36,766 nt of DNA. Origin: Candidatus Methylomirabilota bacterium. GTDB taxonomy: Bacteria; Methylomirabilota; Methylomirabilia; Rokubacteriales; CSP1-6. Shown in pieces: positions 5,157-28,279 of the stretch (position 1 is its first letter; each line of letters opens with the position of its first letter). Below the pieces are notes generated by a model. The model saw nothing but the letters and a program-made list of their open reading frames with translations, did no database searches and was not told the DNA's origin. A program made the position numbers and the translations under genes. The stretch covers positions 1 to 36,766 of the forward strand of contig JBKPAK010000200.1 of the NCBI GenBank assembly GCA_046726415.1, written 5' to 3'.

Positions 5157-5164
5157 GCTGCTGG

Positions 5165-5266
5165 CGAGGAGCACCACCGCTTGGCCGGGGTCCTCGGAGC
5201 GTTGCGGAGTCCCGGGGCGCGACGAGCGCTGGGGGTTTGGGGGCCATCTCGGGGCCCCCATCTCAA
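5165..5266 (-). repeat. Palindromic interspersed repeat, copy B (with internal partial duplication)
   Basis: Reverse strand TTGAGATGGGGGCCCCGAGATGGCCCCCAAACCCCCAGCGCTCG...GTGCTCCTCG; hairpin GGGGCC/GGCCCC; intergenic. Confidence 0.75.
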
Positions 5267-5307
5267 AGAGTTATCATCGACATCGTCCCCAGGAAGGAGC
5301 GAGGCCA

Positions 5308-6609
5308 GTGCTGAGCGAGGAACAGAACAGGGCACTGACGGAAGTCGGCGCCGGCACGCGCATGGGCGAGCTGCTGCGGCGGTACTGGATGCCCATCGCG
5401 GGCGTCGCCGAGCTGGACGACGTCCCGGTCAAACCTCTGCGCCTCTTGGGCGAGGACCTCGTCCTGTACCGCGACAAGAGCGGCACGCTAGGCCTCCTGG
5501 ACCGGCACTGCGGGCACCGCCGCGCGGATCTATCGTACGGCTACGTTGAGGACTGCGGATTGCGCTGTAGCTATCACGGCTGGCGGTGGGGCGAGCACGG
5601 GCAGTGTCTGGCCCAGCCGTTCGAAGAAATCGCCCACCCGGAGGCGCGCTTCAAGGATCGCGTCAGGATCAAAGCATATCCGGTGGAGGCCAAGGCGGGG
5701 CTGGTATGGGCCTATCTCGGGCCCACGCCGGCGCCGCTGGTGCCGACCTGGGAGCCGTTCACCTGGAAGAACGGCTTCGTCCAGATCGTGCTCTCGGAGA
5801 TCCCGTGCAACTGGTTCCAGTGCCAGGAAAACTCCATCGACCCCGTGCACTTCGAGTGGCTGCACGGGAACTGGTCGCGAATCTTGCGGGGCATCGACGG
5901 GCCAAAGCCGCCCAAGCACCTGAAGATCGGCTTCGAGGAGTTCGAGTACGGCTTCATCTACCGGCGGGTGCTCGAGGGTCAATCGGAGTCGGACCAGCTG
6001 TGGAGCGTCGGCCGCACCTGCCTGTGGCCGAACTGCTTGTTCACCGGCGGCCACTTCGAGTGGCGCGTGCCCATCGACGACGCGAACACGCTGAGCGTGG
6101 GCTGGTTCTTCGATCGCGTGCCGAACGAGATGGAGCCGTTCGAGCAGGCGCGCATTCCCTGCTGGGTGAGCCCGATCAAGGATCCGCTGACCGGCCGCTG
6201 GATCACCACCCACATCATGAACCAGGACTTCGTCGCGTGGGTCGGGCAGGGCGCAATCGCCGATCGAACACAGGAGCATCTGGGCGAGAGCGACCGCGGA
6301 GTCATCATGATGCGCCGCCGGCTGCTCGAACAGGCCGAGGTTGTCCACCGTGGCGGCGAGCCCAAGGCCGTGGTCCGCGACGCCGAGGCGAACCGATGCA
6401 TTGCGTTGCCCATCATCGACCGCGAGCGGTACATCGAGGGCTTTCCACGTGCCCGACTGTACCGCGAGGTCAGTGGAACCCCTGGACCCGTCGTCCCCGA
6501 AGGTTTCGTGTTTCAGGCGGGCCAGCCGGAAGAGGTCCGGCTGGCCTATCGACAGGCGATGGGGCTGGACGTCGAGACCTCGCGCCGCGCTCGCGCGGAC
6601 GCGCGCTGA
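5308..6609 (+). CDS. ligX: Rieske non-heme iron oxygenase alpha subunit, 5,5'-dehydrodivanillate O-demethylase (LigXa)-like
   Basis: Rieske ligands CGH...CSYH; mononuclear Fe motif ENSIDPVHFEWLH; MNQDFVAW. Overall sequence closely recalls Sphingobium SYK-6 LigXa (from memory). AGGAAGGAG SD before GTG 5308. Confidence 0.85.
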   Translation: MLSEEQNRALTEVGAGTRMGELLRRYWMPIAGVAELDDVPVKPLRLLGEDLVLYRDKSGTLGLLDRHCGHRRADLSYGYVEDCGLRCSYHGWRWGEHGQCLAQPFEEIAHPEARFKDRVRIKAYPVEAKAGLVWAYLGPTPAPLVPTWEPFTWKNGFVQIVLSEIPCNWFQCQENSIDPVHFEWLHGNWSRILRGIDGPKPPKHLKIGFEEFEYGFIYRRVLEGQSESDQLWSVGRTCLWPNCLFTGGHFEWRVPIDDANTLSVGWFFDRVPNEMEPFEQARIPCWVSPIKDPLTGRWITTHIMNQDFVAWVGQGAIADRTQEHLGESDRGVIMMRRRLLEQAEVVHRGGEPKAVVRDAEANRCIALPIIDRERYIEGFPRARLYREVSGTPGPVVPEGFVFQAGQPEEVRLAYRQAMGLDVETSRRARADAR

Positions 6610-6621
6610 CCAGGAGTCGCC

Positions 6622-7701
6622 ATGGCAGAAATCGTCCTCGGCCTCGGCACCTCGCATACTCCCCTGCTGACCCTTCCGGCCGAGCTTTGGCCCGCCTATG
6701 CCCAGCGGGACGAGCGCAACCAGGAGCTGGCCTACCCGCCGGACGGCGTGGTGATGTCGTATCAGGAGGCGCTCGACTCCATCGCTCCCGAGGTCCGCGC
6801 GAGATACCGAGGGCCGGAACCCTTCGGAGCGCAAGCCGAGACGTGTCAGCGCGCGCTCGACGAGTTGTCGCGCGCGCTGCGCGGCGTCAAGCCGGACATC
6901 ACCATTGTCATCGGCGACGACCAGGACGAGTGGTTCTACGAGGACAACATGCCCGCGCTGTCGGTGTACTGGGGGGAGAGTGCGCCGCTCATCCCACGCC
7001 CGGCGTCGGCGGCGCCCCAGGACCGCGATGTGGTAGAGGCCATTCGTCGGGGGTACGGCGACGTCCCCATGGACGTCCCGGTGGCCAGCGGCTTCGGACG
7101 GTTCCTGATCGAGTACCTGATCGAGCGCGACTTCGACGTCGCCCACATGCGCTACGTCAGGCAGCCGTACGGCGGGCGCGTGGCTCGGCGCTATCCGACG
7201 CGGAAGGGCGAGCTGGACTATGTGCGGGAGACGCCACCCCACGAGCAGGGGCTGCCGCATGCCTTTGCCTTCATCGTCAAGCGCCTCTTCGACAACGCCC
7301 CGGGGATGATCCTGCCCGTCTTCCAGAACACGTGCTACCCGCCCAACCAGCCCACGCCACGGCGCTGCTTCGCGGTGGGTGAAGCCATCGCGGCGGCGGT
7401 GGCCGAATGGCGTGAGCCGGCCTCGGTCGCCATCATCGCCTCTGGCGGCCTGAGCCACTTCGTCGTCGACGAGGAACTCGACCGGGCGCTGCTGGACGCG
7501 CTCGAGCGCAAGGACGCGGGCGCCCTGCGCTCACTGCCGCGCCACCGGCTCCATTCGGCCGGCTCGGAGATCTTGAACTGGGTCGCGCTCGGCGGAGCCA
7601 TGCAGCAGACTGATCTGAAAATGGAGCGGCTCGCCTACGTCCCCGTGTATCGGACGCCAGCCGCCACGGGTGGCGGCTGGGCCTTCGCCCGCTGGCAGTA
7701 G
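6622..7701 (+). CDS. LigB-family (type II) extradiol ring-cleavage dioxygenase, LigZ-like
   Basis: MAEIVLGLGTSH, GDDQDE, PHAF, NTCYPPNQPTPRRC, ASGGLSHFVVDEE, SEILNW; AGGAG SD. Confidence 0.88.
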   Translation: MAEIVLGLGTSHTPLLTLPAELWPAYAQRDERNQELAYPPDGVVMSYQEALDSIAPEVRARYRGPEPFGAQAETCQRALDELSRALRGVKPDITIVIGDDQDEWFYEDNMPALSVYWGESAPLIPRPASAAPQDRDVVEAIRRGYGDVPMDVPVASGFGRFLIEYLIERDFDVAHMRYVRQPYGGRVARRYPTRKGELDYVRETPPHEQGLPHAFAFIVKRLFDNAPGMILPVFQNTCYPPNQPTPRRCFAVGEAIAAAVAEWREPASVAIIASGGLSHFVVDEELDRALLDALERKDAGALRSLPRHRLHSAGSEILNWVALGGAMQQTDLKMERLAYVPVYRTPAATGGGWAFARWQ

Positions 7702-8482: not shown

Positions 8483-9619
8483 TCATTCCGCACCGGGAGG
8501 TTGCGGGGGTTTCGGGCGATCTTCGCGGGACTCTGTTATTGCCCTGAAGGTCGACGTCACCGCCTGGTGGCCGCCGCTGTCCGTGAACGCCTCCTCCCGG
8601 TACAGGCCGAGAGCCTCGAGGACGGGCCGGTCCTGGATCGAGAAGAGGACGGCGGCGTTGCGCGCAGAGCGATTGGCGTGCTCGTGGAGGGCCCAGGGCG
8701 GGAGAGTGATGATGTCCCCCTTGCCCCAGGCGAAGCGGCAGCCGTCGATGATCGTCTCGCCTGATCCCTGGACGACGTAGTACACGGCGCTGCCTGTGTG
8801 GCGATGGGCCTTCAGCCGGTCGCCGGGACGCAGCATCTGGATCCAGCAGGCCATGGTCGGCAAAAGGGAGCGGCCCGTCTGCGGGTGCGTGTACTCGAGG
8901 GCGATGCCGTCGTGCTCGTCTCCCTCGGCGTCGCGCAGGGCGGCGAGCGACGGCCACGTCTTCTCCCAGGAGTACAGGAGCAAGGGCGAAGACTGCGGTC
9001 GCTCCTTCACCCAGGTCGGGGTCAGGCTGACGTGGCCATGGAGTTGGACGGAGGCATTGGCCGGCTTGCTCAACGGCACCTGAGGCTGGTCGTACAACTG
9101 AAAGAACATCGCGTTGAGGGCCTGGACGAGGGGGATGTCGAGGCCGTCCATCCATACGACAGGCCTATCGGTCTCGTTCCCGTGATCGTGCCACGCCCAG
9201 CTCGGCGTCAGCACGAGATCGCCGGGGGCCATGTAGACGCGCTCGCCGCCGACGGCGGTGTAGGCGCCCTCGCCGTCCATGATGAATCGGATCGCCGTCG
9301 GGGTATGCCGGTGGGCGCGGGCAATCTCGCCGGGCAGGAGGAGCTGGACGGCGGCGATCATGGTGTTCGTCGTCGCCCACCGGCCGTCGAGGCCGGGGTT
9401 GAACAGCTGGAGCGCTCTCCGCTCTTCGCCGACCGGCACCACCTCGCCGGACTCGCGGACCATGGTTTCGAGCTGCGACGCGGTCCACATGTACGGGATC
9501 GCTCGCGGCTCGGGGCGCGGCGTCATCTGGCTGGCCAGCTCCCAGAGGCCGTAGATGTGGGCGGCGTGCATCCGCTCGTGAAAGTCCTGCTCGACCGTGG
9601 TGACGGCTTGACCAGTCAT
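8483..9619 (-). CDS. Gentisate 1,2-dioxygenase-like bicupin dioxygenase
   Basis: ERRALQLFNPG, AHRHTPTAIRF, WHDHGN, WMDGLDIP, second cupin AHRHTGSAVY; GGAGG SD. Confidence 0.88.
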   Translation of the reverse strand: MTGQAVTTVEQDFHERMHAAHIYGLWELASQMTPRPEPRAIPYMWTASQLETMVRESGEVVPVGEERRALQLFNPGLDGRWATTNTMIAAVQLLLPGEIARAHRHTPTAIRFIMDGEGAYTAVGGERVYMAPGDLVLTPSWAWHDHGNETDRPVVWMDGLDIPLVQALNAMFFQLYDQPQVPLSKPANASVQLHGHVSLTPTWVKERPQSSPLLLYSWEKTWPSLAALRDAEGDEHDGIALEYTHPQTGRSLLPTMACWIQMLRPGDRLKAHRHTGSAVYYVVQGSGETIIDGCRFAWGKGDIITLPPWALHEHANRSARNAAVLFSIQDRPVLEALGLYREEAFTDSGGHQAVTSTFRAITESREDRPKPPQPPGAE

Positions 9620-9751
9620 GGCGGCCTCCCCGCGCGAGTCACAGCGTGCCTACCCGCGAATGATAGCTGAACCACGCTCATCGACGAGGTGCGCCGCCGG
9701 GTCGGTGGCGTATCGACCCCAGGCTCACTGCCGTCGTCCCAGGAACAGGGT

Positions 9752-16413: not shown

Positions 16414-19395
16414 TCACGGGTGCCCGCGAACCCTCCGCTGCACGCCATCGAGGTAGGCGCCGAACTCCGCCTCGCTGGCGAAGATCTGTTCGGATGGAAG
16501 CGCCTTGACGATCTCGAACACCGCTCGGACCGTGGCTTGTGGATTGATGATCGCCACCCGTCCGCCGCGGTCGGCCAGTGCCTTGTTCGCCCGCATCACG
16601 CAACGAATGCCCGCGCTGCTGACGTACTCGAGCCCGTCCAGCTGGAACACGAGCGACGTCACCTCCGCTGCGTTGAGCAGCGCGGCGAGCTCCCCCTCGA
16701 GCTGCGGCGTGGTGAGGGTGTCGAGGCGCCCCCGCAGCGTCACCCGCCGCTCGGCCGGCTTCTGGCTGGCGATGCCGATCTCCAGTGCCATGGCTCCTCC
16801 TTGTGCGCGCTGCTCCGTCAACGTGAGCGACGCCCCATCCGAGGGCGCGGTCGGGCGCCTTCGGTGCACCGTGAGGACATTGGCCTGTCCCTCTCGCGCA
16901 TACTCGCAGCGGTCGACGAGGTGTTTCAGCAAGGCGATGCCACGCCCGCCGAAAAACGGGGCCGCGTGCGGCGCGTCGAGGTCCGGTACAGGCTGCGCGA
17001 GCGGGTTGAACGGAGGCCCAGTGTCCTCGAACCGGATCTGAATTTCCTCGGGAAGCAGTCGGACCTCGACGTGCGTCTCCCTCCCGCTGCCGCCTCCATA
17101 CGCGTGCTCGGCGATGTTCGTCAACACCTCCTCGGCCGCCAATGAGCAGTCGTGTACCGTCGGGGCCGGCACGTCTCGGGCGCGCAGGATCGCCTCGATC
17201 CGCCGCTGCGCGTGCGCCGTGTCTACGGTCTCGCTCGTGATCGAGAGCCGCCATGCCTCGGCGCCGCGGCCGCCCACCTCGACATCGGGAGGCCGGTACT
17301 GCACCGCAAGGACCGCCAGGTCGTCGCGTGGGCCCCCGCCCTGAGTGAATCGCTCGACGGCCTCCACCAGACGATCCGGCAGCGAGCCGAGGGCTTCGGC
17401 TGGGATGTCCGCCACAACGCGCTGGAATCCTTCCAGGCCGAAGGCCACGCCTCTCGCGTCGAACGCCTCGGTCACCCCGTCTGTGCAGAGGACGAGGGCG
17501 TCACCGGGCGCGAGGTGCCCCGTCCACAGAGGGAACCGGAGGTTCATCTCCAGGCCGAGGGCGGGTCCACCCTCCAGGGCCAATACCGCCGTCGTGCCGT
17601 CGACTCTCCGCAGCAGCGGCTGGTGGTGACCCGCGCTGGCGTACCAGATCTCGCCACTCTCGCCGTCGAGCTCACCGCATGCCGCGGTAACGAACATGCA
17701 CGTATCGTTGCCCTCGGATAGCCTGGTGTCCAGCTCGCGCAGGATGGCGTCGGGACCGGTCCCGCCCCGGCCGATCGCTCGGAAGAGCCCGGTCACCCGC
17801 GCCATCAGGAGCGCGGCGGGCACGCCCTTGTCAGCCACGTCGCCGATGACAAACACGAGCCGGTGGCCATCGAGCAGGAAGAAGTCGTAGAGGTCGCCCC
17901 CGACCTCGCGAGCCGGCCGCAGGGTGGCGGCGACCAGGTATCGCCCATCCAGCGGCTCGTGAAGCGGCGCGGGCAGCATCGACCGCTGGATTTGTCGTGC
18001 GATATCGAGTTCCTGGGCCCGCCGTTGCTCGTCCGCGAGCCCGGCCGCTCGCTCCTCGATGTGATCCTTGAGCTGTACGCGCATCTGATCCGTCACCTCG
18101 ATCAGGGAGCCAACCTCGACCGGGTTCCAGATCTCGGGCAGCCCCGCGTCGAGGTTGCCCCGCCCGATCTCAGCCACCGACCGGGACAGCTCCTCGAGCG
18201 GCCGGGAGATGCGACGCGCGGAGAGCCAGACGAGGCCGAGGGTCAGCCCAAGCACGCCGAGGCCCAGCAGGAGCTGTCGCTGCGCCACACCCCGGGCCCG
18301 TGCAACCAGCTCAGCCCGAGGGGCCGCCAGGAGTAGGATCAGCGGGTCTCCCGCGTCAGCCGCGATGGAGCGCTTCATGCCAATCCACGCCCGTCCCCCG
18401 ATCTGCAGCGGGGTTCCACCACCCGCCTTCACACCGGCAGAGAACAGCGGCCCGAGCGCCGCATCGGCGAGGTCGTCAAGCCGAGTGATATCGGCGCCGC
18501 CGCCCGGCGAGGAGCGGACGAGCTGGCCGGCGTCTGGGTGGGCGATCACCAGACCTTGCCGATCGACGAGGGCCATCCGCGCGGAGGGCGTGACCCGGGA
18601 TTGGGCCAGGCGGCGCGAGAGGTCCTGGAGCGTGATATCGACGCCAACCACACTTCCGCCGTCCGCGCTACGCTGAGCGAGCGTGGTGCCGACCTCACGC
18701 GTGGTGAAGAACACGTAAGGACTGGTCCGGACGGGCGCGGGGCCCCGAAGGGCCTGCCGGTACCACTCCCGCGTCCGGGGGTCGAAGCGGTAATCGGGTC
18801 GGGATTCATCGCGCAGTATGCCGAGGTGCCCATCCAGGAAGAGGTATTGGCCGACGGCCGCTCCCTGGGCGGCGGTGCGGCTCTGGACGAGGAACACCGC
18901 CTGCGGTGGCGCACGTACGCTCTGCCGTGCCACGCCATGCAGCGAGCGGATGAGGAAGAAGTCACCGCTGCGGAAGCCCACGTAGACGGCCGAGATCTCG
19001 GGGTGCTCGGCGAGAGCGGTGGAGAGCAGGGGAAGGACCTCGAGACGCGCGCTCAGGCTGGCGCTTGCCGTGAGCTGGTGTTGCGCGAGGAGCTGGACGA
19101 GGAGATGGGCAGGGGCAAGCAGATCCCGGACATGGCCGGCGGTGCGCTCGGCCACGTGGAGGAACTCCTCGTCGCCCGCGGCAAGAAGCAGATGCGAGGT
19201 GGCGACGTACCCATAGCCGACGATGAGAAGACCGGCGGAGGCGATCAAGGCGACGAACAGTGTCGCGATGTGCACGCGCAGGCGGAATGCCCGGCGCCCG
19301 CGCCGGCGAGACTCGACGGTTCTGGGCCCGCCGAGCCGCGGTGCCCTGAGGGGAGTGTGGGGGCCCATATCCGAAGCCCCACCCACGTCACTCAA
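16414..19395 (-). CDS. Membrane sensor fusion: TM-Cache-TM-HAMP-PP2C(SpoIIE)-RsbW-like kinase-STAS
   Basis: Cache motif FDPRTREWY; HAMP ISRPLEELS; PP2C motifs VGGDLYD, IGDVADKG, TDGVTEA, DDLAV; kinase motifs EVLTNIAEHAY, DTGPPFNP, GGRGIAL; STAS YVSSAGIR. Start TTG 19395 or ATG 19368. Confidence 0.9.
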   Translation of the reverse strand: MSDVGGASDMGPHTPLRAPRLGGPRTVESRRRGRRAFRLRVHIATLFVALIASAGLLIVGYGYVATSHLLLAAGDEEFLHVAERTAGHVRDLLAPAHLLVQLLAQHQLTASASLSARLEVLPLLSTALAEHPEISAVYVGFRSGDFFLIRSLHGVARQSVRAPPQAVFLVQSRTAAQGAAVGQYLFLDGHLGILRDESRPDYRFDPRTREWYRQALRGPAPVRTSPYVFFTTREVGTTLAQRSADGGSVVGVDITLQDLSRRLAQSRVTPSARMALVDRQGLVIAHPDAGQLVRSSPGGGADITRLDDLADAALGPLFSAGVKAGGGTPLQIGGRAWIGMKRSIAADAGDPLILLLAAPRAELVARARGVAQRQLLLGLGVLGLTLGLVWLSARRISRPLEELSRSVAEIGRGNLDAGLPEIWNPVEVGSLIEVTDQMRVQLKDHIEERAAGLADEQRRAQELDIARQIQRSMLPAPLHEPLDGRYLVAATLRPAREVGGDLYDFFLLDGHRLVFVIGDVADKGVPAALLMARVTGLFRAIGRGGTGPDAILRELDTRLSEGNDTCMFVTAACGELDGESGEIWYASAGHHQPLLRRVDGTTAVLALEGGPALGLEMNLRFPLWTGHLAPGDALVLCTDGVTEAFDARGVAFGLEGFQRVVADIPAEALGSLPDRLVEAVERFTQGGGPRDDLAVLAVQYRPPDVEVGGRGAEAWRLSITSETVDTAHAQRRIEAILRARDVPAPTVHDCSLAAEEVLTNIAEHAYGGGSGRETHVEVRLLPEEIQIRFEDTGPPFNPLAQPVPDLDAPHAAPFFGGRGIALLKHLVDRCEYAREGQANVLTVHRRRPTAPSDGASLTLTEQRAQGGAMALEIGIASQKPAERRVTLRGRLDTLTTPQLEGELAALLNAAEVTSLVFQLDGLEYVSSAGIRCVMRANKALADRGGRVAIINPQATVRAVFEIVKALPSEQIFASEAEFGAYLDGVQRRVRGHP

Positions 19396-20098
19396 CCGCG
19401 GTGTACATCCGCTCGTCGTAGAGCGCGCCCGTGGCCGGCGCGAGCTTGTCGCGGAACTGGCGCGTCGGCGCGGCCATGGAGTGCGCCTCGACTGCCTTCG
19501 GGTCCTTCCAGATCTCGACGACCGTGAAGTGATTCGGGCGATTGGTCTGCTGCACCACCTCGAAGCGCAGGTTGCCGTCGCCCGTTCGGCTATCGGCGCC
19601 GAGCTGCTTGACCGCGGCCACGCCGTCGTCCTTGCGCGGCGGAATGATGTCGACGTGGGTCACCACGTAGATGGCACCGCGCATGGGCGATGATTCAATG
19701 GGGCCGACTGAGAGGCCGGTATGCACCCGCTCGTCGGTCGGGGCGTTGCGGATCGCGGCAATGCTCTCCCGCATCTCCCTCGAATTCGCGCCCTTGCCGT
19801 GCGCCTCGAACGCCCTCTGGTCCTTCCAGACTTCGAGGATCGCGAACTGGTACGGCTGGCCGATGCGCTGCACCACCTCGCAGCGCAGGTTGCCGTCCTC
19901 CTTTCGGGTGGCCTCCCGGTAGCGTTTGAGGAGGGCGCGGCCGTCCGCGGTGGACGTCGGCATGACCTCAACATAGATCACGGAATAGATGCTACCCTCG
20001 ATGGGGGCCGGAGCGGGCGCTTGGGCTCCGACCTCTCCGATGGCGCCGATCACCATGATCGCCACACCGAGGACAAGACTGCGAAGGAAGCGTTCCAT
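19388..20098 (-). CDS. Secreted tandem antibiotic-biosynthesis-monooxygenase (ABM)-domain protein
   Basis: Hydrophobic signal ending GAQ; two repeats of GNLR.EVVQ...F.(I/V).E.WKD..A.EAH; GAGGTG SD. Confidence 0.82.
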   Translation of the reverse strand: MERFLRSLVLGVAIMVIGAIGEVGAQAPAPAPIEGSIYSVIYVEVMPTSTADGRALLKRYREATRKEDGNLRCEVVQRIGQPYQFAILEVWKDQRAFEAHGKGANSREMRESIAAIRNAPTDERVHTGLSVGPIESSPMRGAIYVVTHVDIIPPRKDDGVAAVKQLGADSRTGDGNLRFEVVQQTNRPNHFTVVEIWKDPKAVEAHSMAAPTRQFRDKLAPATGALYDERMYTAVE

Positions 20099-20228
20099 CC
20101 CATCACCTCACTCGTCAACCGACATCCCACGCGCTCGTTCGCCGAAGCGGCTCGGCCCGCGGGAAATGATCGTCCTGGTGGGAGGCGTTCTCGGGAACTT
20201 GAGCGCGCAAAGCACTGAGCACGCCGGG

Positions 20229-21781
20229 TCATCGGGCGGGTCGCGCGTCCCAGAGTGCCGCCAGCGCGTGCCGGTCGATCTTGCCATTGGCATTTTTGGG
20301 GATCGCATCAACGACGAGGACCGCCGCCGGGACCTTGAACGCCACGAGCTTCGCCCGGCAATGCGCGAGCAGCGCCGCCTCGGCCACGCGCCGTCCCGGT
20401 CGCGGGGCGGCAAAGCCCACCGGCACCTCGCCGTAGATCCCGTCCTTGACGCCGACGGTGGCGACGTCGGCCACGTCCTCATGCTCGAGGAGGCAATTGG
20501 CAATCTCGAGCGGAGCGATGTTGACACCGCCCTTGATGATGACGTCCTTCGTGCGTCCGGTGATGTAGATGTAGCCGTCCTCGTCCCGGCGGGCGAGGTC
20601 ACCGTTCCGGAAGCCGTCTTGCGGGATCGGGACCAGCGCGTCTGGTCCCTGCCAGTAGGCCGAAGCCATCTGTCGACCGTCGACCACCATCTCCCCTTCC
20701 TGCCCCGGCGGCAGCGGGTGGCCCGCGTCGTCGAGGATGCGCACGCGCATGTTGAGAGTTGGGCGACCGATCGAGCCGTGCTTGCGCTGGCTCGGATGGT
20801 TGCCGCACATGAAGCCGGTCTCGGTGCCGCCGGCCAGCTGGACCACGGGAATCCCGTAGGTGCTCTCGAACTCCAGGTGCTTGTCCAGGGAGAGGGGGGC
20901 CGTGCTCGAGGTGATGAAGCGGAGCTTCGGCAGATCGGTTTTGACCACCGCCATCGGCCGGGCCAGGAGCATGTTGATGACCGTGGGAATGCCGACGGCG
21001 ATGGTCACACCATGGTCCCGGATCCACTCGAAGAACCGGGCCGGGGAGAATTTGGCCGCGAGGACCAGGGTGGCGCCGGTCAGCAGGGTCGGCCCGACGG
21101 AGAGGATCTGCGGGGACGACCAGCTGAAGTGTCGATAGTCCAGGATGGTGTCGGCTTCCGTCATCTCCAGTCGATCGATCGACGACTCACACATCGCGTA
21201 GTACGCCTCGTGGGTCCAGAGGACCCCTTGGGCGTGTCGGTGGTCCCTGATGTGTAGTCGATCAACGACCAGTCCCCTCGCGCCGGGTGGTCGGCGACAG
21301 GCGTCTTCGGCGCCGCCCGGATGCGGGCGAACAAGTCGTCGGGCGCGGGGTTCGGGGCGTTCCACGCCCCAAATGGGATCCATGGCGTCCCGCCGGACGA
21401 AGGCGCGCGCGCATCGACGGAGAGCTCGCGGCTCTTGAAGACGAGCCTCGGCGCGACTTCCCCGAGGATCTGGCGCACGTGCGTCCTGCGGATCTCGACG
21501 TTGATCGGGTTCACGATCACGCCGGAGCGAAGGGCACCCCAGAAGATGACCAGCGCTTCGATTCCGTTATCGGCCAGGACCGAGATCCGGTCGCCCGCGT
21601 GGATACCCTCGGTGGCGAGGAGGTTGGCGAAGCGGCGGGTCAGCGCCTCGAACTCCCCCCACGTGACCCGCGAGCTCTGATCCGGACTCTCGATGTAGAT
21701 TTTGCTCGGGCGCCGGCGAGCATGCTCCTCGAGGAGCGTGTTGACGTCGGTGTACGCGCTCGAGCCGGTGTCGACCGTCAT
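20229..21781 (-). pseudogene. AMP-forming acyl-CoA synthetase/CoA ligase, frameshifted (pseudogene or sequencing error)
   Basis: N-half ends at P-loop YTSGTTDTPKG; C-half continues VLWTHEAY...GGTETG...GDLA...GRTKDVIIKGG...PKNANGKIDR. One G is missing in the G4 run at 21224-21227. Confidence 0.85.
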
Positions 21782-21784
21782 GGA

Positions 21785-22831
21785 CTACTTGAACGCGAGC
21801 ATCACCTGTTTGGTGAGGATCTCGAGGCTCCGCTTCTCCTGGGCAATCGGCAAGAGTCCCCCGGGGTTCAGCTCGGCCGCGATTCCCGTCAACCCCAGCT
21901 CTTCCCTCAACCCCGTCAGGCGGTCGATGAGCCCCTCGGCCGTCCCGAACGCCACCTTGGTCGTCAGAATCGCCTCGTACGTGAGAGCGGACAGCCGGCT
22001 CGCTTGACCCTCCCGGAACTCGGCCGGTCCGGTGCCGGCCCGACCGATCGGCGCGCGGGCCAGCTGGGCCTGGCGCTGAAAGTAGTAGGTGATGGTCTCG
22101 TACGGTTCTTCGGTGGCGGCTTGCTCCGTGGGCGCGGCATACACCGGGATGCGAAGGCACACGTCACCGTTGCCGGCGTGCCCGGCGTCCCGCCACGCCG
22201 CGCGGTACGCCTGCAGGTTCTCCGCCAGCTCGGGGATACTCATCCCGCGCAGCCCGACGAAGATGGGCAATCCCATCCGGCCGACTCGGGGAAACGTCTC
22301 CGGCGTGGTGGCGGCCATCCGGACCGGCGGATGGGGGGCCCGATACGGCCGCGGGGCGACCGCCGCGTTGACGAACTTGTAGTACTTGCCTTCGTAGCTG
22401 AAGGGCTCGCCCTTCCAGGCCTGCAGGATGATCTCCAGCGCCTCGAAGAACCGCTCCTGACTTTCCGCGTAGGGAACGCCGAGCGCGTCATAGGCCCGGG
22501 GGGATCCGCTGCGGCCGATGCCGAAGTCGAACCGCCCCTGGCTGAGGTGATCGAGCGTGGTGATCTCACCGGCGACGCGGATCGGGTGGTTCAGGGGCAG
22601 GAGCTGGACCGCGGTGCCCACCCGCACGCGTGTGGTCCGGCCCACGATCCAGCTCGCCACCAGCAGCGGCGCCGACAGCACCGACCGGGCGGGGTTGATG
22701 AGCATCTCGGCCAGCCACACGATGTCCAGGCCCCACTCCTCTGAAGCGTCCACGACCTCGAACATCTCGCGAAACGCGTCATCCTGATTCACACCCAGCC
22801 GCGTCTGCTCCAGGAAGATTCCGAAGTCCAT
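21785..22831 (-). CDS. Luciferase-like (LLM class) flavin-dependent oxidoreductase
   Basis: MDFGIF, VWLAE, RVGTAV, LDHLSQGRFDFGIGR, PRP..PHPPV; GAGAGGAG SD before ATG 22831. Confidence 0.9.
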   Translation of the reverse strand: MDFGIFLEQTRLGVNQDDAFREMFEVVDASEEWGLDIVWLAEMLINPARSVLSAPLLVASWIVGRTTRVRVGTAVQLLPLNHPIRVAGEITTLDHLSQGRFDFGIGRSGSPRAYDALGVPYAESQERFFEALEIILQAWKGEPFSYEGKYYKFVNAAVAPRPYRAPHPPVRMAATTPETFPRVGRMGLPIFVGLRGMSIPELAENLQAYRAAWRDAGHAGNGDVCLRIPVYAAPTEQAATEEPYETITYYFQRQAQLARAPIGRAGTGPAEFREGQASRLSALTYEAILTTKVAFGTAEGLIDRLTGLREELGLTGIAAELNPGGLLPIAQEKRSLEILTKQVMLAFK

Positions 22832-22844
22832 TGCGCTCCTCTCG

Positions 22845-24374
22845 TCAGATGCCACGATCGGCCAGGAACTTCGCGTAGTCGCGCTGCCCGTCCTTCGCCT
22901 GCCGGATCTGCTCCGGCGAGTAGAAGCGGGCGAGGTCCACCACCTCGACGTTGTAGCGGGCCCGCTCGAAGGCGTCCTTGTAGATAAAGGGGCGGGTGGC
23001 GTCGATCCCCATCGCGCCGGAGAAGCGGATGTTGGTCTGCGTCCACTGGCGGTCGCCGGCCGAGCTGCGCTCCGCCGGCTGGAACGTCTGACCGAAGCCG
23101 CCCTCGCACACGGTCAGGATGTCCTCCCGAGGGTTCACCCGCGTGGTGATGGCCCACAGGATGTCCTCGATATTGTAGAGATCGACGTCCTCGTCGACCA
23201 CGATGCCGAGGCGCGCCCCGAGGGAGATCGACAGGGCTGCGGTCAGGATGTTGCGCTGAAGTCCTTCGTCGCGCGCTCGCCGCTTGCGGACCTGAAAGAG
23301 CACTCCGCCCCAGTCGGTCATGCCCATGGGGATATGGGTGTCGATGCACAGGCCCGGGACGATGCGCTCCGCGAGCTCCAGAAAGCACGCTTCTCGCATG
23401 TGGCCGTCGATGAAGTGCTCGTCCATGCTGTGAACGATGAGGCCGTAGTAGAGCGGCCGATCGGCGCGATGGGTGATCGCCGTCGCCTGGAACTTGTACG
23501 TCCGGTACGCCTTGCCCATGTAGCCCGACCACTCGGGGTGGAAGGGATGGACGCCCTGGGCATCGTCCTTCTCGGCGAGCGGGCTCTCCCATACTTTCTG
23601 GGTCGTGTCGAGGTAGCCCTCGATGACGTACTCCGCGTTGGCGATCGCCCAGGCATCCTGCGTGCGCGCCTTCACCAGCTCGACCGGATAGCCTTGCAGG
23701 GCGCCGGCCACACCCAGCTCGTCGCAGCCGCGCGGCAGGATCACATAGGTGAAGCCCGAGCCCGCCATCATCGTGCAGGCCGGCGGTATCCCGATGTTGA
23801 TCGTCATAGGGATGGGACCCTGGCGGAACCAGTTGGTGGCCACCTGGTCCATGTGGGAGCCCGGGGAAATCTGGAAGCTTGAGAAGTCGGGGCCGCGGAA
23901 ATTCATCCGGTTGTAGCCGATGTGCGAGCCGCCCCAGAAGTACTTCCCGCGGACCACGGTGGTGCCGGCGCCGAGCGTGCGCCCGGGATCGCTCTCGGCG
24001 TGAGAGATCATCGGCACGACGTCCCACACGTCGAAGTCCTTCGTCAGCACGACTTCCTGGCAGGGACCGTCCGGCACCTCCACCGGGGGAATCGGATTGC
24101 GCAGCGCCTCCACCGCCCGGTGCTTGATCCCGCGTGGGTCCTGGACGTCGAGGAGCTTGGCGATGCGTTCGGCGCTGGCGAAGATGTTGTTGCAGATCCG
24201 CGCGTTCGGGTAGCCCTTGACCCTGTTGAAGAGGAGGGCAGCGCCGCCGTCGAAGTGCTTCTGGATCGCGGCGACCTCGAGGTGCGGATCGACCTCCACA
24301 TCGGTGCTGACCAACTCGCCGACGGCCTCGAGGTACTCGAGGGTCGAGCGCAGGCTCCCGATGTCCTTCTTCAT
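22845..24374 (-). CDS. UbiD-family prFMN-dependent decarboxylase, phthaloyl-CoA decarboxylase-like clade
   Basis: GGSHIGYNRMNFR, FQISPGSHM, FHPEWSGYMGKAY, MTDWGG, GQTF.PAER, MGIDAT match my recollection of anaerobic phthaloyl-CoA decarboxylases; GGAGG SD before ATG 24374. Confidence 0.88.
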   Translation of the reverse strand: MKKDIGSLRSTLEYLEAVGELVSTDVEVDPHLEVAAIQKHFDGGAALLFNRVKGYPNARICNNIFASAERIAKLLDVQDPRGIKHRAVEALRNPIPPVEVPDGPCQEVVLTKDFDVWDVVPMISHAESDPGRTLGAGTTVVRGKYFWGGSHIGYNRMNFRGPDFSSFQISPGSHMDQVATNWFRQGPIPMTINIGIPPACTMMAGSGFTYVILPRGCDELGVAGALQGYPVELVKARTQDAWAIANAEYVIEGYLDTTQKVWESPLAEKDDAQGVHPFHPEWSGYMGKAYRTYKFQATAITHRADRPLYYGLIVHSMDEHFIDGHMREACFLELAERIVPGLCIDTHIPMGMTDWGGVLFQVRKRRARDEGLQRNILTAALSISLGARLGIVVDEDVDLYNIEDILWAITTRVNPREDILTVCEGGFGQTFQPAERSSAGDRQWTQTNIRFSGAMGIDATRPFIYKDAFERARYNVEVVDLARFYSPEQIRQAKDGQRDYAKFLADRGI

Positions 24375-24450
24375 GCGGCGCCCTCCGGTAACCGAACCCT
24401 GAGCCGTTCCGTTCCGCGTCCGTCGGGCCCGGCCCGATCCGTCGGCAGCG

Positions 24451-24479
24451 ATACTGCTCCGGTGGCTGCGCGCCGTCAA
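24451..24479 (-). promoter_or_regulatory. Putative promoter of the UbiD operon
   Basis: TTGACG, 17 nt, CAGTAT. Confidence 0.35.
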
Positions 24480-24726
24480 GGCGCCGCCGCCGACGACACA
24501 GATCGGGGAGACGTGGAACGCGCGCGGATGCGACCACGGTGAAGCGCGGGGCGCGAGGGCTATGAGAACGCGATCGATCTCCTGCGGAGGCGCCGATCAT
24601 GGGGCGCGGACGGGAGTTGTTGACGCCTCTGTCGATTGGTCGGTTCTGCGCCCCGATGCGGGCGAGGGTCGGCTTCGCGTATCGGTCTCGCTCACTCGGA
24701 CACCGCAGCAAAGAGGACCCACGGGT

Positions 24727-24912
24727 TCAAGCTATGCGGCCCGACGTTCCTCCCGCGATGACGCCACAGCCCAGGCACTGCCATACCGCGGGGCGATACC
24801 GGAATAGACGATCGCCGCACAACGGGCAATTCTTCAAATCTGGCGCCGTATTAGTGGTCACTGGCCCTCGATCCGTTCCAGCATCAGAAGCCGTATCGAC
24901 CTGGCCTGACAT
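24727..24912 (-). CDS. Small putative zinc-ribbon protein (61 aa)
   Basis: CPLCG-x12-QCLGCG; GGAGG SD 5 nt before ATG 24912; perfect TTGACA at 24971-24976. Confidence 0.5.
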   Translation of the reverse strand: MSGQVDTASDAGTDRGPVTTNTAPDLKNCPLCGDRLFRYRPAVWQCLGCGVIAGGTSGRIA

Positions 24913-25009
24913 GTCCGCCTCCAAAGCGCTGAAGGGCAACTGGAGGTAGTACACTAATCTCGATCGGAATTGTCAAGCCCTGCGCCTCTGAATCTCACCG
25001 CTCGACGAC

Positions 25010-25891
25010 TCAACTGTTCCTGAGGAAGGTTACGATCCGCCGCGTCACCTCCTCAGGCCGTTCCAGGTGCAGAAAGTGGCCAGTGCCCGGCAGAATGACC
25101 TTCTCTACGCCCTTGGGAAAGAGGTGATCCATGGCTTCGAACGCCTCCAGGCGGCCGGGGCGATCCCTCGTGCCGTGCAGGGCAAGCGTAGGGACGGGTG
25201 TAGGAGACGTGCTGATGCGTTCCTGCAGCGTGTGCAGGGCGGGATCGCGGTTGGCGGGATGAAAGGTGTGTCGGTAGTAGCTGAGCGCCGCGGTCAAGAC
25301 ACCGGGCTGGCGGAAGGTGGTCTTCACGCTCTCCATGATCTCCGGAGGGGGCGCGAATTCCGGAGAGGCGTCTCGCCACCAGCGCTCCAGAAACGCGTAG
25401 TCGTTCGCCGCCACCGCTTGCTCGGCGAAAGGCATCTGGAAGAAGTATGCGTGCCAGGTGCCCTTGAGCCGGTCGTAGGTGAACGCGAGCTCGCCCCGCG
25501 CGGCGGCTGGATGAGCCGCCGCTAACGTGACGAGCTTCTCCACGCGGGCCGGGGCCAGAGTCGCTGCCCCGTAGGTCGCAGTGGCACCCCAGTCATGGCC
25601 AACCAGAAATGCCCGCGCGGACCCGAGAGCCCCAATCAACTCCACCGCGTCTTGGGCCAGCAGGACGGCTTGATAGCGCCCATCGGGCGCTGGTGACGTC
25701 GGCGCATAGCCGCGCATGAAGGGCGCCACTCCCCGAAAGCCCGCCGCGGCCAGAGCCGGCAGGAGATGGCGGTACGTGTAGGCATTGTCGGGAAAGCCAT
25801 GCAGACACAACACCAGTGGGCCTTCCCCGAGCTCGAGATAATGAAAGGTGATGTCATTCGCCTGCACGCTGCCGGGGCGGAACTCGGCCAT
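25010..25891 (-). CDS. Alpha/beta hydrolase, epoxide-hydrolase-like
   Basis: HGFP oxyanion motif, GHDWG nucleophile Asp, GHFLHLE catalytic His; GAGG SD. Confidence 0.92.
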   Translation of the reverse strand: MAEFRPGSVQANDITFHYLELGEGPLVLCLHGFPDNAYTYRHLLPALAAAGFRGVAPFMRGYAPTSPAPDGRYQAVLLAQDAVELIGALGSARAFLVGHDWGATATYGAATLAPARVEKLVTLAAAHPAAARGELAFTYDRLKGTWHAYFFQMPFAEQAVAANDYAFLERWWRDASPEFAPPPEIMESVKTTFRQPGVLTAALSYYRHTFHPANRDPALHTLQERISTSPTPVPTLALHGTRDRPGRLEAFEAMDHLFPKGVEKVILPGTGHFLHLERPEEVTRRIVTFLRNS

Positions 25892-25951
25892 GCTGATTCC
25901 TCTGCTCCCCGCGAGTCGGGACGCGTTGCGCTCGGCTCGCCAAATTCGCCA

Positions 25952-26887
25952 TCAGCGCCGAAAGGCCGGGACGACTTCCTCCATGAAGAGCTGGAGTCCC
26001 TCCAGGTCGATCGGGCCCCGCAGCACCGCGTTCACCCAGGTGGCGCCGGCTTTCTGGTAGCGCCCGACGCGGTCGATAACTCGCTGCGGCGTTCCCGCTA
26101 GCATGCCTTCTTCCAGACGCGTCTCGTGGCGCGCGCCGAACCGCGCGGCGAGGTCCGCTTGCTTCTTGGCCACCTCGCCCTCGGTGCAACCGATCCCCAG
26201 ACCTAGGTTGACACTGCGGATCACGGTCGCGGGGTCGCGCTTCTCCACCTCGCACCATTCCGTGAGCACCGCATTCTTGCGCGACCATTCTTCAACGCTG
26301 ATGTAGGCGCCGTTCCAGGCGTCACCGTAGCGAGCGGCCAGGCGCAGGGTGCGTCGCTCACCACGTCCGCCGATCCAGATCCTGGGGGAAGGCTGCACGG
26401 GCCTCGGTCGGCTATAGGCCTGGCGCACCGTGAAGTACGTGCCCTCGAAGTCCGTGACATCCTGCGTCAGCATCGATTTGATGATCTGCAGCGCCTCTTC
26501 GAAGCGATCGAGGCGCTCGCGGGGCGGCAGGAACGGCACGCCAAAGGCCACGTGCTCAGCCTCGTGCCAGCCGGCCCCCAGGCCCACTTCCAGCCGGCCA
26601 TGGCTGATGTGGTCGATTGTGATGAGCGACTTGGCCAGGACGGCCGGGTTGCGGAAGGCACAACAGAGCACATGGCAGCCGACGCGCACCCGCGAGGTTT
26701 CCGCCGCCACCGCGGCCATCAGGGCTACGGCTTCCATCTCGGACCCCCCGGGATCCTCGACCAGGGCCGGGTAGAGGTGATCCCAGACCGAAACCCATTC
26801 GAGTCCGCCCACGTCAGCCAGCTTCCAGGCCCGCCGCAGCTCGTCGTAGGAGCAGTGCTGTTGGCCGGTGTGAATGCCAAAATGCAT
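25952..26887 (-). CDS. LLM-class oxidoreductase (probable F420-dependent subfamily)
   Basis: SVWDHL, FRNPAVLAK, IDHISHGRLEVGLGAGW..EH, PRIWIGGRGE; start ATG 26887. Confidence 0.88.
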   Translation of the reverse strand: MHFGIHTGQQHCSYDELRRAWKLADVGGLEWVSVWDHLYPALVEDPGGSEMEAVALMAAVAAETSRVRVGCHVLCCAFRNPAVLAKSLITIDHISHGRLEVGLGAGWHEAEHVAFGVPFLPPRERLDRFEEALQIIKSMLTQDVTDFEGTYFTVRQAYSRPRPVQPSPRIWIGGRGERRTLRLAARYGDAWNGAYISVEEWSRKNAVLTEWCEVEKRDPATVIRSVNLGLGIGCTEGEVAKKQADLAARFGARHETRLEEGMLAGTPQRVIDRVGRYQKAGATWVNAVLRGPIDLEGLQLFMEEVVPAFRR

Positions 26888-26992
26888 ATCGGACGCCTCG
26901 CGCCAGGTGGTCGCGATGGCCCTCGAGGGTAGCACAGGGCCCTGGCCAGAATGGTCCTCCGCTCTCGAGGCCAGGCGAGGCACGGCCCTCCC

Positions 26993-27021
26993 TTGCACCC
27001 ATTCAGTCCTTGGCCTAGTAT
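26993..27021 (+). promoter_or_regulatory. Putative sigma70 promoter of the Liv-type ABC operon
   Basis: TTGCAC, 17 nt, TAGTAT. Confidence 0.5.
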
Positions 27022-27079
27022 TCGCCGATCCCGTCGATGACCCGACCCTCCCGGGTCGGACCTCCAGGAGGACACGTCC

Positions 27080-28279
27080 ATGATGAAGCAGATTCTCGCG
27101 GTACTTGCGGCGCTGGCCATGACCGCGGCGTGGGCCCAAGCCCAGGAGGTGAAGGTGGGCGTGAATCTACCGTATACGGGCATTGGCGCCGAGTTCGCTC
27201 AACAGGTGGATCGCGGCATGGAGCTCTACCTCAAGCTCAATGCCGACAAGGTGAAACCCTACAAGATCTCGCTGATCAAGCGCGATGTGAAAGACCCGGG
27301 CGGAGCCAACGCCAAGATCGTGGTCCAGGAGCTCCTCACCCAGGACAACGTCGACATCCTCGCGGGCTGGATCTATTCGCCGAACGCCATCGCATCGGCG
27401 CCGGTCGTCACGGCTGGCAAGAAGCTGGCCGTGATCATGAACGCGGGCACGGCTCACATTACCAATATGTCGCCCTACTATGTCCGCACCTCGTTCAGCA
27501 TGTGGCATGCCGGCTACGCCATGGGGGACGCCGCCGCCAAACTGCTGAAAGCCAAGACGGCGGTCGTGGGTTATACCGACTTCCCGCCCGGTAAGGACAG
27601 CCTGGCCGCGTTCAAGCGCGGCTTCGAAGCCAACGGGGGCCAGGTGATCGACGAGATCCCGATGGCCGGCGCTGGCGCGGTGCCCGACTTCACGCCCTTC
27701 TTCCAGCGCGCCAAGGACAAGAAGCCAGACGTCTTCTTCGTCTTCGTGCCGGCTGGTGACCATGCCGCCGCCGTGGTGAAGACCTACGCCGCCCTCGGCA
27801 TGCGGGAGGCGGGCATCAAGCTGATCGGCCCCGGCGACATCACTCAGGACACCAAGCTGCAGGCCATGGGACCGGCCGCCGTCGGCCTCATCACGATGCA
27901 CCACTACACCGCCGATCTCGACAACCCCGAGAACAAGCGCTTCGTCGAGGCGTGGAAGAAGGAGTACGGCGCGAACTCCACCCCCGATTTCATGGCCGTG
28001 GGCGGCTACGACGGCATGGCCGCCATCGTCCACGTGATCCACACCCTCAAAGGCAAGATCGACTCGGACAAGGCACTGGAGGCGCTCAAGGGCTGGAAGT
28101 TCGCGAGCCCCCGGGGACCCATCATGATCGACCCCGTCACCCGCGACATCGTCATGAACGAGTACCTGTCCGAGGCGGTGATGAAGGACGGCCGCGTCGT
28201 CCAGAAGGTGATTGGCAAGATCGACGGAGTGAAGGACCCCTGCAAGGAGCAGAAGATCGGGCCTTGCGCGCCCAAGTGA
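27080..28279 (+). CDS. Liv/HAAT-family ABC substrate-binding protein (aromatic-acid-binding type)
   Basis: Signal peptide AWAQAQ; VKVG, RTSFS, PDFTPF, SPRGPI.IDP.TRD; AGGAGG SD. Confidence 0.9.
   Translation: MMKQILAVLAALAMTAAWAQAQEVKVGVNLPYTGIGAEFAQQVDRGMELYLKLNADKVKPYKISLIKRDVKDPGGANAKIVVQELLTQDNVDILAGWIYSPNAIASAPVVTAGKKLAVIMNAGTAHITNMSPYYVRTSFSMWHAGYAMGDAAAKLLKAKTAVVGYTDFPPGKDSLAAFKRGFEANGGQVIDEIPMAGAGAVPDFTPFFQRAKDKKPDVFFVFVPAGDHAAAVVKTYAALGMREAGIKLIGPGDITQDTKLQAMGPAAVGLITMHHYTADLDNPENKRFVEAWKKEYGANSTPDFMAVGGYDGMAAIVHVIHTLKGKIDSDKALEALKGWKFASPRGPIMIDPVTRDIVMNEYLSEAVMKDGRVVQKVIGKIDGVKDPCKEQKIGPCAPK

Follow-up and report, generated by a model that had tools for sequence, protein, structure and literature searches.

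The window examined here, the whole stretch of DNA that was analyzed, is the entire 36.8-kb contig C200 of a 7.6-Mb metagenome-assembled genome (MAG) (G+C 64–69%), with an estimated completeness of 98% and an estimated contamination of 4.7%. The closest relatives of the window are MAGs of Candidatus Rokubacteria/Methylomirabilota, and the genome is that of a soil member of Rokubacteria. Three genes on the minus strand encode a UbiD-family decarboxylase resembling phthaloyl-CoA decarboxylase (Pcd), a luciferase-like (LLM) flavin-dependent protein, and a CoA ligase of the ANL superfamily, arranged in this order (Table 1). An earlier note, made from the sequence alone, had described the trio as co-directional with gaps of 13 and 3 nucleotides (nt), and the coordinates agree with it, as UbiD and LLM are separated by 13 nt (22844–22832) and LLM and the ligase by 3 nt (21784–21782). 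The three genes most likely form one operon.

Table 1. Positions of the three genes and of associated sites in the window.
Feature	Position	Strand	Description
UbiD-family phthaloyl-CoA-decarboxylase-like decarboxylase (P0001)	22845..24374	-	509 amino acids (aa); Pfam UbiD_N, UbiD, UbiD_C; relatives also 509 aa with an identical start
Luciferase-like (LLM) flavin-dependent monooxygenase-type protein (P0002)	21785..22831	-	348 aa; Pfam Bac_luciferase, 200 bits
ANL-superfamily acyl/aryl-CoA ligase	20229..21781	-	split over two frames in the window; a continuous frame would give about 517 aa; AMP-binding and AMP-binding_C
1-nt frameshift site in the ligase	21223..21227		four-C run on the plus strand (21224–21227), four G on the gene strand, just past the P-loop codons
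Spacer 5' of UbiD, likely operon promoter region	24375..25009	-	635 nt, non-conserved

The UbiD protein is, on sequence grounds, a member of the Pcd family. It has the three-domain architecture of UbiD, with Pfam scores of 63 (UbiD_N), 123.5 (UbiD), and 62 bits (UbiD_C). Among all solved structures, its best match is Pcd (8oz5/8pmk), with an E-value of 5e-152 and 510 bits over residues 7–501, whereas the runner-up UbiD, 3,4-dihydroxybenzoate decarboxylase, reaches 172 bits. Its identity to the Pcd of Aromatoleum aromaticum EbN1 is 48%. The EbN1 plasmid-2 gene (L038:6959–8539, WP_011255025.1) was chosen as the Pcd reference because it matches 8pmk over its whole length with 1175 bits. A second, unrelated UbiD gene is located on the same plasmid 3.3 kb downstream of Pcd, behind an ABC transporter (L038:11847–13358), and among solved structures, it matches 7pda best (374 bits). 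The genome to which the window belongs encodes eight UbiD-family genes, of which the window copy alone is Pcd-like.

The motifs previously quoted for this protein, GGSHIGYNRMNFR, FQISPGSHM, and FHPEWSGYMGKAY, are all found in its translation. It had also been proposed that the usual EGPFGE is replaced. When the window UbiD was aligned with ordinary UbiD paralogues (six of the same genome and one of EbN1), the canonical E-G-P-F-G-E was indeed found to be split in the Pcd-like family into E263-SPLA-(13 residues)-E281-W, with the 13-residue insert separating the two glutamates. The window UbiD carries the signature of the Pcd-like family, namely this insert, FHPEW.GYMGKAY, and GGSHIGYNRMNFR, a signature that is a description derived from the present alignments and not a published definition. 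No variation is seen at R156, H174, E219, E263, and E281 in alignment A1, of which EbN1 Pcd is a member, and these residues occupy the same columns as the canonical R, H, E, and E..E of the seven ordinary UbiDs. With these columns presumed to correspond to the catalytic residues of Fdc1 numbering, the Glu-Arg-Glu network and the metal ligands of UbiD enzymes are conserved in the predicted protein. Residue 151, five residues before the arginine (codon at about 23922–23924, minus strand), is His in both the window UbiD and EbN1 Pcd, Asp in some members of the clade of EbN1 Pcd (clade I, see below), and mostly Asn in ordinary UbiDs (L041, L047, and EbN1 UbiD2). The His151 column may relate to Fe2+ dependence, which is reportedly the subject of Mergelsberg et al. 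2017, going by its title.

A tree of 103 UbiD rows was built with IQ-TREE (quick mode, LG+G4, SH-aLRT support only), with long-branch warnings for the outgroups and for the frameshifted L034. The 95 rows of the Pcd-like family are united with an SH-aLRT value of 100 on a branch of length 1.68 and comprise two clades, one of which, clade I (33 rows, SH-aLRT 100), contains EbN1 Pcd, and the other, clade II (62 rows, SH-aLRT 97), the window UbiD. Clade II in turn consists of 34 rows that form a Rokubacteria clade (support 98) and include the window, and of a sister part of 28 rows with Pelotomaculum isophthalicicum, a Syntrophorhabdus MAG, Desulfosporosinus, and many Deltaproteobacteria MAGs. The earlier note had placed the UbiD in the phthaloyl-CoA decarboxylase clade and proposed a phylogeny as the check. 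Membership in the Pcd-like family stands, given the structure match and the SH-aLRT value of 100, but the protein falls in clade II, sister to the clade of the characterized Pcd, and the placement therefore holds only halfway. Of the 523 alignment columns, 84 are at least 97% identical across the clade-I, Rokubacteria, and sister subsets, a count that applies to these subsets of 23, 30, and 28 rows, which, owing to re-rooting, are smaller than the tree clades of 33, 34, and 28 rows. Rows named as the Pcd of Desulfosarcina cetonica or D. toluolica were absent from the best 80 of a Desulfobacterales-based profile scan and from the best 120 of a protein search with L057.

This phylogeny bears on a simpler reading, in which the operon is a plain o-phthalate module of phthalate-CoA ligase and phthaloyl-CoA decarboxylase, as in sulfate reducers, working under oxic or micro-oxic conditions. 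A ligase-dependent o-phthalate route is described for D. cetonica in excerpts of a 2026 review (PMC13040137), and according to portions of PMC8269228, the Pcds of Deltaproteobacteria group separately from those of Beta- and Gammaproteobacteria; a characterized o-phthaloyl-CoA enzyme could therefore fall in the clade of the window. However, the sister clade of the Rokubacteria UbiDs holds the UbiD of the isophthalate degrader P. isophthalicicum, which is 62% identical to the window UbiD, and that of the Syntrophorhabdus MAG. In addition, the Pcd-like family is present in at least 475–579 species genomes of many phyla, which is hard to square with one xenobiotic substrate, and the o-phthalate module is considered unlikely. 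Pcd-like UbiDs are also found in the named isolates Alteribacillus sp., Amycolatopsis alkalitolerans, Propylenella binzhouense, and Devosia equisanguinis (L208, L210, L229, and L251), which we take to be aerobic.

The neighborhoods of 138 distinct Pcd-like loci were surveyed by tblastn with 12–16 query proteins and a radius of 5 kb, where a window-type ligase was defined by an identity of at least 35% (Table 2). The window's own copy and loci with a UbiD match of less than 400 residues were left out. Outside the group with the highest UbiD identity, here called the crown, 87 of the 115 loci have a CoA ligase or a class III CoA-transferase at a distance of at most 5 kb from UbiD. In 40 of these 115 loci, the DNA on one side extends for less than 3 kb, and many of the loci counted as lacking a ligase or transferase have such cut flanks. 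A CoA-activating partner is thus the constant companion of the Pcd-like family, as the earlier note had stated for this UbiD clade, and its presence near these UbiDs supports a CoA-thioester substrate. In clade I, UbiX and two class III CoA-transferases are the usual neighbors.

Table 2. Genes found within 5 kb of Pcd-like UbiD loci, grouped by UbiD identity.
Group	Loci	Ligase	CoA-transferase III	Either	UbiX	LLM orthologue
Crown, UbiD at least 87% identity	23	6	1	7	0	17
UbiD 70–86% identity (Rokubacteria-like)	10	7	3	9	5	0
UbiD 58–69% identity	25	4	16	20	4	0
UbiD 42–57% identity	80	13	45	58	30	0

The LLM orthologue shows a different distribution, as it occurs within 5 kb of UbiD in 17 of the 23 crown loci and in none of the 115 others. 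Orthologues of LLM in Rokubacteria are 73–88% identical to the window protein. The gene lies 15–255 nt downstream of UbiD in 10 loci and 18–34 nt before the ligase in L013/L115, L017/L180, and L131, the last being an LLM–ligase pair at a contig edge. The ligase directly follows UbiD in L001, L009, L016, L018, and L019 and follows LLM in L013. The exact order of UbiD, LLM, and ligase is confined to the window and L013, while L017 has UbiD, a 4.8-kb insert, LLM, and the ligase. The usual crown order is an Amidohydro_2 gene on the opposite strand, a metallophosphoesterase, UbiD, LLM, an enoyl-CoA hydratase, and a further enoyl-CoA hydratase on the opposite strand; enoyl-CoA hydratase genes are present in 14 of the 23 crown loci, and polysaccharide-export genes sometimes sit between UbiD and LLM. 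The metallophosphoesterase and Amidohydro_2 genes that flank UbiD in most relatives are located elsewhere in the genome of the window. UbiD–LLM and UbiD–ligase neighborhoods recur across many Rokubacteria MAGs and exceed chance. Conserved synteny of the trio, which had been named as a further check, is borne out for the linkage of UbiD to a ligase or transferase, which is general, but not for LLM, whose linkage is restricted to the crown Rokubacteria and is facultative there.

The ligase had been counted as the third gene of the operon. Its AMP-binding and AMP-binding_C domains and the P-loop TSGTTDTPKG are present as expected, but its reading frame is broken in the window, which had been overlooked. 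The N-terminal 186 codons (AMP-binding profile 1–179) and the C-terminal 330 codons (profile 179–384 plus AMP-binding_C) are in different frames, and the switch occurs directly past the P-loop, at the plus-strand run of four C. In relatives carrying the ligase, both halves are in a single frame 3 nt apart, and the intact orthologues of 515–519 aa lie directly after UbiD or LLM. One explanation is that the operon is decaying, where the frameshift is real in the strain and the module is either non-functional or reliant on another CoA-activating enzyme. The frameshift is indeed present in the window as given, and the ligase is gone from the locus in most crown relatives. On the other hand, contigs from two soil-metagenome runs, X1 (depth 29.8/29.8) and X2 (10.5/10.5), carry one extra C behind plus-strand position 21223 at full depth and differ from the window by just 3–4 other letters. 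X3 and X5 do not reach the site, and X1 possibly comes from the window's own sample and is hence not independent. No further stops or indels were found in the ligase, both halves retain full Pfam matches, and the break falls within a homopolymer run, which is typical of a consensus error. Decay is accordingly very improbable, and the break is very probably a homopolymer consensus (assembly) error with one base missing. The solved structures nearest to the ligase, searched with the orthologue from L018, are FadD13, malonyl-CoA synthetase, oxalyl-CoA synthetase, MenE, and benzoate-CoA ligase, and the window ligase is of a FadD/MatB/MenE-like type.

The LLM protein is probably the oxygenase of a two-component FMNH2-dependent monooxygenase, as suggested by sequence and model comparisons. 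Its best solved sequences are FMN-type LLMs (8cbb, 3e-29; 6ket, 6e-26; 7bip, 2e-23), and Mer reaches 8.5e-15. In an AlphaFold model computed from 24 sequences (pLDDT 89.6), the protein has the Bac_luciferase TIM-barrel fold, and the best folds are those of FMN enzymes with TM-scores of 0.79–0.83 (0.83 to 7bip and 8cbb), and F420 enzymes appear from rank 21. The FMN-dependent relatives include RslO1 (7bip), the homodimeric luciferase of Enhygromyxa (8cbb), the OX domain of a polyketide synthase/nonribosomal peptide synthetase (6ket), the Atu monooxygenase (2i7g), and a type II Baeyer–Villiger monooxygenase (4uwm), with E-values from 3e-29 to 3e-19. The window LLM is just 21–24% identical to them, and no NCBIfam model passed its cut-off. 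In the ESM Atlas, matches were limited to generic LLM clusters. The OX domain has its place in an assembly line, where the substrates are tethered as thioesters. In L122, L125, L126, and L127, the LLM orthologue has a Flavin_Reduct gene as its neighbor. The genome of the window has two Flavin_Reduct genes, both on contig C245, and none in the operon.

Genes that could serve the operon are encoded on other contigs of the same genome. A UbiX family prenyltransferase is located at C188:1762–2415 in a housekeeping context and scores 261.9 bits (cut-off 188). BoxB (858 bits, cut-off 499), BoxC (902.6 bits, cut-off 712), and a benzoate-CoA ligase family protein (686 bits, cut-off 375) are all encoded on C156. 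Benzoyl-CoA reductase subunit B was not found in this MAG, which is about 98% complete. The window contains two HpaB-type oxygenases, a Rieske/LigXa_C oxygenase, a LigB-type dioxygenase, and a bicupin resembling gentisate/5-aminosalicylate dioxygenase. The assertion that the genome also encodes oxygenases is confirmed by these genes and by BoxB and BoxC. The organism looks aerobic or micro-aerobic from its gene content, and a benzoyl-CoA-type product would enter an oxygen-dependent route.

Two gene groups were observed alongside these searches. On C156:24772–33297 (L110:8773–17298), a single strand carries an LLM paralogue, benzoate-CoA ligase, an EamA transporter, BoxB, BoxC, and an HTH-cupin regulator. 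This paralogue is 62% identical to the LLM of the relatives and is a second such LLM adjoining aryl-CoA genes. In the window itself, at 5119–7698 (plus strand) and 8486–9649 (minus strand), the Rieske oxygenase with a LigXa C-terminal domain, the adjacent LigB-type extradiol dioxygenase, and the gentisate/5-aminosalicylate 1,2-dioxygenase-like bicupin (317–323 bits, below the cut-off) form a set reminiscent of lignin-biphenyl catabolism, the product of which, 5-carboxyvanillate, is a substituted isophthalate. A link between this set and the operon is speculative.

From the gene identities, the family membership of UbiD, the conserved neighborhoods, and the presence of UbiX, BoxB, and BoxC, we infer a substrate class, an order of steps, and a possible role for LLM. 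On balance, the reading that we favor is that the operon carries out CoA ligation of an aromatic dicarboxylate followed by UbiD decarboxylation, with LLM adding an O2-dependent step and the product entering the Box route. The ATP-dependent ANL ligase would attach CoA to one carboxyl group of an aromatic dicarboxylic acid of the phthalate-isomer type. The UbiD, which would depend on prenylated FMN supplied by the UbiX prenyltransferase encoded away from the operon, would then take off the remaining ring carboxyl to yield a benzoyl-CoA-type thioester. This product could then feed the oxygen-dependent benzoyl-CoA (Box) route, of which the genome encodes BoxB and BoxC as well as a benzoate-CoA ligase. 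LLM would catalyze an O2-dependent step on the thioester or on its precursor.

Several findings weigh against this pathway. The window UbiD lies outside the clade of EbN1 Pcd, the sole characterized Pcd placed in the tree, and 62 columns are fixed differently between the clade-I subset (23 rows) and the Rokubacteria subset (30 rows); therefore, the substrate may differ from any phthalate isomer. No ligase or CoA-transferase is found within 5 kb in 16 of the 23 crown loci, where LLM is instead followed by two enoyl-CoA hydratase genes, which means that the locus can do without a ligase. BoxA was not found in the genome of the window, where the best match has 24.8 bits against a cut-off of 459, and the operon contains no UbiX, transporter, or regulator gene. 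The cofactor of LLM is affected as well, since the NCBIfam models TIGR04020 (124.8 bits) and TIGR03619 (114.2 bits) both remain below their cut-offs with FMN- and F420-type models scoring alike, and CofD, which bears on F420 use, is encoded in the genome. Moreover, 14 of the 34 LLM orthologue rows have no UbiD within 5 kb, although two of them (L127 and L130) lack upstream DNA, and in the closest relative MAG, UbiD and the ligase are adjacent (L001), while LLM, with 88% identity, is on another contig (L112). Separately, the UbiD–LLM crown loci with this hydratase pair and with no ligase or CoA-transferase within 5 kb include L003, L007, L011, L012, L014, L020, L025, L030, and others.

The unlinked LLM orthologues and the separate LLM of the closest relative MAG also speak for a reading in which LLM is a bystander, that is, a widespread Rokubacteria monooxygenase with its own substrate that came to lie beside UbiD by rearrangement, while UbiD and the ligase alone cooperate. 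The unlinked LLM orthologues have varied neighbors, such as Opp-type binding proteins, Amidohydro_2 pairs, and a zinc-dependent alcohol dehydrogenase with a flavin reductase, and the absence of LLM orthologues from all 115 non-crown Pcd-like loci fits the same reading. In contrast, the gaps in the window are tight, and the downstream place of LLM is kept even where export genes are inserted after UbiD. A tree of LLM proteins with 46 rows, from which seven rows of contigs already represented and the window copy L048 were left out, also gave an orthologue clade of 34 rows with a support of 100, in which 19 rows are UbiD-linked and 1 is ligase-linked at a contig edge. LLM thus adjoins UbiD or a window-type ligase in 20 of the 34 rows, and these are spread over several sub-branches of the UbiD crown clade. 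The UbiD–LLM link is frequent but facultative, and the bystander reading is regarded as possible but doubtful.

A more far-reaching version of the favored pathway can also be formulated. Here, the crown Rokubacteria would have recruited a Pcd-type UbiD to a new oxygen-dependent CoA-thioester route for natural benzene dicarboxylates, for example lignin-derived substituted isophthalates such as 5-carboxyvanillate. LLM would oxygenate an aryl-CoA or aryl-dicarboxyl-CoA, and the oxygenated ring would be processed by the enzymes of the enoyl-CoA hydratase family that the relatives encode. Such an attack on the ring is not known to occur among LLM enzymes. This version is distinctly improbable in our judgment. 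In a still bolder form, the ring, being electron-poor, would receive a hydride in an F420H2-dependent transfer.

Pcd of Thauera chlorobenzoica and A. aromaticum EbN1 (8oz5, 8p02, and 8pmk) is the nearest characterized system. It belongs to the same UbiD sub-family as the window protein and shares with it the insert, the motifs, and the E/R/E and metal-ligand columns. The two differ in that the window UbiD, with the 48% identity to EbN1 Pcd given above, lies in the other main clade and has an ATP-dependent ligase and LLM beside it with UbiX elsewhere, whereas clade I has the CoA-transferase pair together with UbiX. A similar scheme of CoA-dependent decarboxylation followed by an oxygen-dependent benzoyl-CoA route, here with BoxA not found, is suggested by the gene set when it is compared with the aerobic hybrid phthalate pathway of denitrifiers. 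That pathway, which proceeds via phthaloyl-CoA in denitrifying bacteria, is said to have been described by Ebenau-Jehle et al. in 2020 and is not known to include an LLM.

The order of ATP-dependent CoA ligation and UbiD-type decarboxylation is likewise common to anaerobic routes. Excerpts of PMC13040137 describe, for both o-phthalate and isophthalate, activation by a CoA-transferase or a ligase and subsequent decarboxylation of the UbiD type, and state that no CoA route has been elucidated for terephthalate. The o-phthalate route of D. cetonica in the same excerpts follows this logic, a likeness by description and not by sequence. D. cetonica is a strict anaerobe for which these excerpts report no LLM, whereas the genome of the window encodes BoxB and BoxC and gave no match for benzoyl-CoA reductase subunit B. 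CoA ligation and then UbiD-type decarboxylation of a benzene dicarboxylate is also the logic of isophthalate:CoA ligase (IPCL) and isophthalyl-CoA decarboxylase (IPCD) of Syntrophorhabdus aromaticivorans, as described in parts of PMC9516798, where IPCL is PaaK-like, whereas the window ligase is FadD/MatB/MenE-like. In PMC8269228, IPCD is grouped with sequences that carry the annotation phenolic acid decarboxylase subunit C. Within the excerpts of the review PMC13040137, LLM is not mentioned in such clusters, and the word luciferase refers there only to a biosensor. No literature on Rokubacteria with a phthaloyl- or benzoyl-CoA decarboxylation pathway was found.

The regions flanking the operon were also inspected. 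The loci of relatives match only a 41-nt stretch of the 635-nt spacer upstream of UbiD. A simple scan of window positions 19200–26000 returned no sigma-70-like and no terminator-like site, and no Rfam family matched positions 19000–27500. The spacer contains an open reading frame of 61 codons (24727–24912, minus strand) for a small, zinc-ribbon-like protein with two CxxC pairs, which is not conserved in the relatives' loci compared. Located 130 nt 3' of the ligase, the gene at 19388–20098 (minus strand) encodes two antibiotic biosynthesis monooxygenase (ABM) domains behind a signal-peptide-like N-terminus. It is followed at 16414–19395 (minus strand) by a 993-aa sensor that combines dCache, HAMP, a SpoIIE phosphatase, an HATPase_c_2 anti-sigma kinase, and STAS in a single chain. 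Near the UbiD locus of relatives, a CHASE2-SpoIIE gene and a separate HATPase_c_2 gene are found.

Pcd-type enzymes carry out a key step in the anaerobic degradation of phthalate plasticizer residues. The present analysis finds this family in abundant, uncultured soil Rokubacteria, as part of an uncharacterized sister clade and in a genome with genes for oxygen-dependent benzoyl-CoA degradation. The breadth of the Pcd-like family argues for evolution on natural aromatic dicarboxylates and not on man-made phthalates. The UbiD–ligase pair follows a known pathway logic, while LLM, located between the two genes and conserved beside UbiD in the crown Rokubacteria, is the new element. If LLM acts on the thioester, it would represent a new enzymatic step in CoA-dependent aromatic catabolism. 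In that case, a pathway that can be tested for compounds of the iso- or terephthalate type would also be at hand.

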